From assembly GCF_000026545.1 (NCBI RefSeq), contig NC_011601.1: a stretch of 64,000 bases of DNA, one strand, 5' to 3'. The translations under genes and the position numbers were made by a program. The stretch is from Escherichia coli O127:H6 str. E2348/69. Its GTDB lineage: Bacteria; Pseudomonadota; Gammaproteobacteria; Enterobacterales; Enterobacteriaceae. Positions 16,973 through 17,844 of this stretch are shown in pieces (position 1 is the first letter of the stretch; the number at the start of each line of letters is the position of its first letter). Under the pieces are notes generated by a model. The model was not told where the DNA came from. It saw only the letters and a program-made list of their open reading frames with translations, and made no database searches.

Positions 16973-17844
16973 ATGAATCCGTCTGATGCCATTGAGGCAA
17001 TTGAAAAACCGCTCTCCTCCCTGCCTTACTCACTTTCCCGTCACATCCTGGAACATCTGCGCAAACTCACCAGCCACGAACCCGTGATTGGCATTATGGG
17101 AAAAGCGGGGCCGGTAAATCCTCACTCTGTAATGCGCTGTTTCAGGGAGAGGTCACCCCGGTCAGTGATGTTCACGCCGGCACCCGGGAAGTGCGGCGCT
17201 TCCGTCTGAGTGGTCACGGTCACCGCATGGTTATCACTGACCTGTCCGGGGTGGGCGAGAGCCGGGACAGGGATGCAGAGTATGAAGCCCTGTACCGTGA
17301 CATTCTGCCTGAACTTGACCTGGTACTGTGGCTGATTAAAGCCGATGACCGTGCCCTGTCTGTGGATGAGTATTTCTGGCGACACATACTGCACCGGGGA
17401 CATCAGCAGGTGCTGTTTGTGGTGACGCAGGCCGACAAAACAGAGCCCTGCCATGAATGGGATATGGCAGGTATTCAGCCTTCTCCCGCACAGGCACAGA
17501 ATATTCGCGAAAAAACGGAGGCGGTATTCCGTCTGTTCCGGCCCGTACATCCGGTTGTTGCCGTATCGGCCCGCACCGGCTGGGAACTGGATACGCTGGT
17601 CAGTGCGCTCATGACAGCGCTTCCCGACCATGCCGTCAGTCCCCTGATGACCCGCCTGCAGGACGAGCTGCGCACGGAATCTGTCCGGGGTCAGGCCCGT
17701 GAACAGTTTACCGGTGCGGTGGACCGGATATTTGACACGGCGGAGAGCGTCTGTGTTGCCTCTGTTGCCCGTACGGTTCTGCGTGCCGTCCGTGACACGG
17801 TGGTCTCTGTTGCCCGCGCTGTATGGAACTGGATTTTCTCCTGA
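16973..17844 (+). pseudogene. YeeP/YfjP/YkfA-family GTPase, inactivated by a 1-bp deletion in the P-loop
   Basis: Track ORFs 16934-17209 and 17191-17844 are one gene in two frames; the frame breaks at GIMGK(T)G ~17105, where GKTGAGKS is expected. Confidence 0.8.

Follow-up and report, generated by a model that had tools for sequence, protein, structure and literature searches.

A one-base deletion in the P-loop codons of an island-borne yeeP-type GTPase gene in the lineage of Escherichia coli O127:H6 E2348/69

The yeeP-type GTPase gene in a genomic island of E. coli E2348/69 lacks one base in the codons of its P-loop, and it is very probably an ordinary dead gene, a loss-of-function pseudogene specific to one lineage. 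At the level of sequence, a member of a recognizable GTPase family has been broken by a lesion that is inherited and that, among complete genomes, is restricted to E2348/69. The stretch of DNA analysed, called the window throughout, comprises 64,000 nucleotides and is the exact reverse complement of positions 2946718–3010717 of NZ_CP059840.2, the chromosome of the enteropathogenic strain E2348/69. Within it the gene measures 872 nt, compared with 873 nt for intact alleles; coordinates are collected in Table 1. As a frameshift pseudogene the locus is already known: in three separately deposited complete genomes derived from E2348/69, all of different length (NZ_CP059840.2, NZ_LT827011.1 and NZ_LT903847.1), the public PGAP annotation gives it the label 'GTPase family protein, frameshifted'. 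The analysis below concerns how the frame was lost, how widely the lesion and others like it are distributed, and whether a functional product might nevertheless be made.

Table 1. Positions in the 64,000-nt window of the pseudogene, its parts and its island neighbours.
Feature	Position	Strand	Basis or remark
yeeP-type GTPase pseudogene, whole	16973–17844	+	PGAP 'GTPase family protein, frameshifted'; repaired ORF of 290 aa
Frame-0 reading as encoded	16973–17209	+	44 native and 34 out-of-frame residues, then TGA; 78 aa
G3A4 tract holding the 1-nt deletion	17098–17104	+	Alignment to five intact alleles; 60-mer and 61-mer census
Remnant G1/P-loop codons (GKSGAGKS), divided between two frames	17099–17121	+	
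Remaining gene in the −1 frame, Ser45–Ser290 and stop	17104–17844	+	ORF 17191–17844 is its tail
G3 motif DLSG	17239–17250	+	−1 frame
G4 motif TQAD	17425–17436	+	−1 frame
G5 motif SAR	17566–17574	+	−1 frame
IS911-type orfA fragment, just upstream, first of the IS3/IS30/IS66 remnant stack	16380–16766	−	
IsrC/IS102-type RNA and agn43 regulatory region with GATC sites	17961–18197	+	Rfam RF00124, 47.6 bits against a gathering threshold of 46; similarity to the K-12 flu leader
Ag43/AIDA-repeat gene fragment without N- and C-termini	18176–19438	+	PGAP
Dynamin-family gene	19483–21867	+	First of a trio spanning 19483–23836
RdcB-family diguanylate-cyclase regulator gene	21864–22769	+	Second of the trio
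Patatin-like phospholipase gene	22766–23836	+	Third of the trio
hsdM	5191–7629	−	Type I RM system, 1–7629
hsdS	3830–5191	−	Type I RM system
darT	3162–3818	−	Between hsdS and hsdR
darG	2098–3165	−	Between hsdS and hsdR
hsdR	1–2079	−	Type I RM system; cut by the window edge
tRNA-Ser(GGA)	29078–29165		End of the island, adjoining ghrA

Two open reading frames cover the locus, one of 91 aa (16934–17209) and one of 217 aa (17191–17844), both opening with GTG and lying in different frames. A sequence-only reading of the window had taken them for consecutive pieces of a single gene, which is borne out both by their coordinates and by the effect of a one-base repair: with one base added, a 290-aa ORF results. 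From the native ATG at 16973, frame 0 reads MNPSD...VIGIMGK (natively ...EPVIGIMGK) and then departs into AGPVNPHS..., ending at a TGA at 17207–17209, while the −1 frame, taken from 17104, gives SGAGKSSLCNALFQGEV... and is open up to the stop at 17842–17844. In the repaired reading the G-domain motifs fall in order as GKSGAGKS (residues 43–50), DLSG (90–93), TQAD (152–155) and SAR (199–201), and the protein matches Pfam MMR_HSR1 with E = 1.8e-13. The comparison with K-12 YfjP that the sequence-only reading had called for gives 50% identity, colinear over the full length; for YkfA the corresponding value is 49%. At the DNA level the locus is 95–98% identical to thousands of yeeP-type copies. 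Its full-length colinearity with YfjP, YkfA and yeeP-type alleles and its G1, G3, G4 and G5 motifs mark the gene, as judged by sequence, as a yeeP-type member of the YeeP/YfjP/YkfA family of small Era/Der/TrmE-like (TRAFAC) GTPases, but one whose ORF is interrupted, the frame being broken at codons 43–44. Because 4,075 complete E. coli records have a copy that spans 80% or more of the gene, the two reading frames are not a chance juxtaposition.

When the gene is aligned to five intact alleles of 873 nt, the gap opens at the third position of codon Gly43, between 17100 and 17101, and the deletion may be placed anywhere in the G3A4 tract at the Gly43–Lys44 codons of the P-loop GKSGAGKS. The surroundings of the lesion, within 17090–17115, read GGGAAAAGC. 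A single-base loss in the P-loop had thus been recognized correctly from the sequence, except that the tract lies slightly upstream of the ~17103–17108 first proposed, and that the motif then expected, GKTGAGKS, is the YfjP version; yeeP-type alleles read GKSGAGKS. Codon 43 is polymorphic among complete records, with exact 61-mer matches to GGT in 3,006 cases, GGG in 920 and GGA in 125, so that the lost base need not be homopolymeric. The nearest full-length allele, that of strain B771 with 13 differences, carries GGT. The alignment is compatible with loss of the T of GGGTAAAA, of one G in a G4 run or of one A in an A5 run; given these three intact codons and the GGT of the nearest allele, the A5 run is one candidate source among three. 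A phase-variable homopolymer switch was also considered and rejected, the tract being only G3A4 and identical in all 13 assemblies of the allele examined.

A 60-mer spanning the lesion was present in 3 of the 4,057 complete E. coli records carrying the segment (7,825 places), and all three are E2348/69; the remaining records, among the matches listed, align to this 60-mer with a single gap. Among complete E. coli genomes the lesion is therefore restricted to E2348/69. The E2348/69 genome has a single place that matches the gene at megablast level, and no second copy of the GTPase was found within the 64-kb window, which leaves this strain without an intact yeeP-type GTPase.

Most probably, an ancestor of the lineage to which E2348/69 belongs lost one base at Gly43–Lys44. 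Ribosomes starting at the native ATG would then leave the frame after GIMGK and stop 34 codons later, giving a truncated product that lacks the remaining P-loop (SGAGKS) together with G2–G5 and is predicted not to bind GTP; the last 745 nt would persist as a relic, untranslated or marginally translated at best. A G domain that has lost its G1 motif does not bind nucleotide. Since the encoded product ends after the first two P-loop residues and has none of G2–G5, P-loop biochemistry implies that it is not a GTPase. We infer that the locus yields no functional protein and has decayed neutrally, in an IS-riddled segment that also holds a truncated Ag43 gene.

The E2348/69 allele has four private nonsynonymous substitutions (S85R, P92S, A222V and F290S) and six synonymous ones. 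Pro92Ser alters the G3 DxxG motif from DLPG to DLSG and Phe290Ser lies at 17839–17841; Pro92 and Phe290 are invariant in every other allele read and in K-12 YfjP and YkfA, and the two replacements may postdate inactivation. As a signal of relaxed selection, four changes against six are too few to be told from comparisons between intact alleles. They give no sign of long neutral drift, and the lesion may for that reason be recent.

The proposal, made from the sequence, that this backbone gene has decayed repeatedly and independently gains weight from at least seven other distinct lesions in other strains, including a 5' truncation in K-12 that leaves ~555 nt. The lesion closest to that of E2348/69 is another 1-nt deletion in the same P-loop codons, 7 nt further downstream and accompanied by an adjacent G-to-C change, in an allele of strain MSHS 133 that is annotated as frameshifted (locus 1501–2372; AAAAGCGGGGCCGGT to AAAAGCGGGCCCGT). 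It struck another base, one of the GGGG run of Gly46–Ala47, in an allele 95.4% identical to that of E2348/69, and it occurs in 213 complete E. coli records as against 3 for the E2348/69 lesion. Lesions of the MSHS 133 type are spread across unrelated strains, among them O103 STEC and isolates from goose, giant panda and chicken, and in MSHS 133 itself a dynamin-family gene, rather than Ag43, lies directly 3' of the GTPase gene. In uk_P46212, and in 10 of 60 sampled rows overall, residues 65–210 are missing through an in-frame deletion of 438 bp between a pair of GGTCAGTG repeats. These 8-bp direct repeats flank the deletion in uk_P46212 (locus 1501–1935) and in nine other sampled records, and the uk_P46212 leftover, a 144-aa 'hypothetical protein', keeps the P-loop without G2–G5. 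Truncations adjoining an IS66-family element are found at gene nt 215 in EC25 and at gene nt ~337 in RM9088, an IS5 junction lies past gene nt 56 in ES9, and in FORC_042 and NT1W25 an IS3 insertion divides the gene, as judged from the match table only.

Decay is frequent yet not the rule, and most E. coli copies keep the intact length. Of 60 records sampled at even spacing, E2348/69 among them, 51 have a best copy that extends over all 873 nt; the five intact copies that were opened are annotated as normal CDS, and every full-length copy read, the E2348/69 and MSHS 133 types aside, spans 873 nt. Recurrent knockout might nonetheless mean that an active yeeP-type GTPase is costly and not merely dispensable. 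Two 1-nt deletions in the P-loop only 7 nt apart, a repeat-mediated 438-bp deletion and several IS-associated truncations are what suggest such a cost; selection would then possibly be tied to Ag43 or to the dynamin-family/RdcB modules, and the heptamer described below might leave a trace of wild-type protein. We regard this account as improbable, and neutral decay as the better description of the E2348/69 locus.

Full-length protein might still be produced by recoding, through a −1 slip on the heptamer G_GGA_AAA (17098–17104) that would supply wild-type GTPase at a reduced and perhaps regulated level. The heptamer is of the canonical X_XXY_YYZ form and stands in frame 0, a −1 slip on it would give exactly the GKSGAGKS protein, and the −1 frame is open for all 745 nt past the break. 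Of the heptamers tested by Sharma et al. 2014 (PMC4066793), 61% were measurably shift-prone without a stimulator, and G_GG.A_AA.A is used by some IS elements. The same study, however, cites earlier work in which G_GG.A_AA.A was inefficient in E. coli, and its shift-prone motifs without stimulator reached ratios of only 2.1–10 over a background of ~0.055%. No stimulatory structure is apparent in the 81 nt downstream (17105–17185), whose folding energy, −28.4 kcal/mol, is no better than that of shuffled sequences (mean −26.3, z = −0.63). The two-frame arrangement, moreover, is confined to 3 of the 4,057 records, and the five 873-nt copies read in other strains each form one intact ORF. Intact alleles have GGT, GGG or GGA at this site, followed in frame by AAA AGC, so the heptamer was created by the deletion; occurring in one lineage only, it appears to be an accident of that deletion and not a conserved signal. 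Regulated or substantial recoding is thus very unlikely, although on the sequence a trace of full-length protein in E2348/69 is possible.

It is also highly doubtful that the locus operates as a split gene, with its 3' part translated alone, starting either at ATG 17227 (205 aa) or at GTG 17191 (217 aa), and serving some function independent of the P-loop. Gene callers do report these downstream ORFs, and database entries name them 'yeeP protein' or 'putative GTP-binding protein'. Against such a role, a G domain of this kind, being without G1, would bind no nucleotide by established biochemistry; a consensus scan across 16700–18200 returned no promoter-like site; PGAP treats the locus as one pseudogene; and in other strains the gene has succumbed to many unrelated lesions, and the parts removed vary from one to the next.

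That the mutation is real and inherited follows from its recurrence in separate assemblies. Besides the three complete genomes, the DNA was read in ten further NCBI assemblies, and 10 of 10 carry ATGGGAAAAGCGG with the identical lesion. Three of these loci depart from the window sequence at gene nt 716, 718 and 868 and are offset against it downstream of the gene, and three have a different upstream sequence; with such differences in sequence and in flanking context, the ten are not all copies of one record. The 78-aa frameshift product has exact matches on 29 contigs, the 205-aa fragment on 24 and the 217-aa fragment on 3, and the E. coli source names for these fragments include DEC1A, DEC1B, DEC1D and DEC2D. 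By exact-sequence look-up, the repaired 290-aa protein was absent from a collection of ~15 billion proteins. With the same lesion in three complete and ten further assemblies, and with the DEC strains among the source names, the mutation is inherited within a lineage that includes E2348/69 and is not a sequencing error. The sequence-only reading had allowed that resequencing could reveal an intact frame; all thirteen of these assemblies have the opposite, the broken one. That reading had also raised the possibility of a base dropped from a short homopolymer by sequencing or assembly, the gene being intact, and the lesion does sit in a G3A4 tract, but this is hardly credible beside the thirteen identical assemblies, the DEC source names, the frameshift fragments on dozens of contigs where the repaired protein is missing, and a nearest intact allele whose GGT codon could lose its T without any homopolymer error.

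For annotation, the two short ORFs are to be treated as one pseudogene, as PGAP does. The set of alleles assembled here also provides a modest survey of how often, and by which routes, an island gene is lost, and may guide functional tests of the YeeP/YfjP/YkfA family.

The island that carries the pseudogene ends at the tRNA-Ser listed in Table 1. Its order runs from a type I RM system with darT/darG, through IS66, IS30, IS3 and IS911 remnants, to the yeeP-type gene and an Ag43/AIDA-repeat fragment with both ends missing; the dynamin-family/RdcB-family/patatin-like trio follows, and then DUF932, antirestriction, yeeS and yeeT genes, a YeeU-family antitoxin and a CbtA-family toxin. The tRNA-associated island position upstream of isrC/agn43 is typical of the yeeP type, with the same order in K-12, B771, S42 and E. 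coli C. Heavy rearrangement marks the left part of the backbone, with dense IS remnants directly upstream of the pseudogene: the stack at ~10900–16770 holds an IS3 copy, an ISEc47 of the IS66 family with truncated tnpB, a frameshifted IS30 split by an IS3-family element, and the IS911-type orfA. On the other side of the gene, a region resembling the agn43 leader has GATC sites at ~17962–17999. The Ag43 fragment behind it lacks both termini, so this neighbouring backbone gene has decayed as well; having neither start nor signal peptide nor C-terminal end, it may leave the leader as a switch with nothing to switch. The genes of the trio have overlapping stop and start codons and take the place of the Ag43 3' part and yeeR, and in other strains the dynamin/RdcB/patatin module lies directly 3' of the yeeP-type GTPase.

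Outside its own family, the repaired protein is most similar to Era, Der (EngA) and TrmE, which are the best matches among solved structures (~1e-9) and NCBIfam models and which it matches across G1–G5. The NCBIfam scores are far under the curated cut-offs of the Era, Der and TrmE families (for example, 50 against 380 bits for MnmE), and the island GTPase differs from these proteins in having its own N-terminal ~35 residues and a C-terminal extension of ~70 residues; it belongs to a separate family. Sequence search returned no solved structure for the YeeP/YfjP/YkfA family itself. PADLOC defence models gave weak, partial matches to the P-loop only, the best being LeoBC (E = 1.3e-5, 22.5 bits, P-loop half), and an anti-phage defence GTPase was rejected as a candidate for want of a significant PADLOC match; PHROGs matches were to families of unknown function only. 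The titles and abstracts listed for yeeP, yfjP and ykfA included none about the function of these proteins; in them, yeeP turns up in several metabolic-engineering papers, and many other matches are unrelated acronyms.

Within the family, YfjP (CP4-57) and YkfA (CP4-6), both putative GTP-binding proteins of K-12, share with the yeeP type the stretches EPVIGIMGK(S/T)G(A/V)GKSSLCNALF, DLPGVGES and LWLIKADDRAL and a C-terminal VVSVARAVW. Their P-loops differ, YfjP having GKTGAGKS and YkfA GKTGVGKS where the yeeP type has GKSGAGKS, and both are intact 287-aa ORFs followed by DUF932 genes, whereas isrC-agn43 follows the yeeP type. The closest relative in K-12 is yeeP itself (b1999, in the cryptic prophage CP4-44), which is ~97% identical in DNA across the ~555 nt left there. 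It too lies upstream of isrC and an Ag43 gene (yeeP-isrC-flu), and it too is annotated as a pseudogene, as the sequence-only reading had noted, but by a different and independent lesion: K-12 yeeP has lost its 5' ~320 nt including the P-loop and is truncated beside a yoeA/IS2 junction, whereas the E2348/69 allele keeps its whole length minus one base. The island sites also differ, K-12 yeeP lying beside cobU and the E2348/69 gene at the tRNA-Ser adjoining ghrA.
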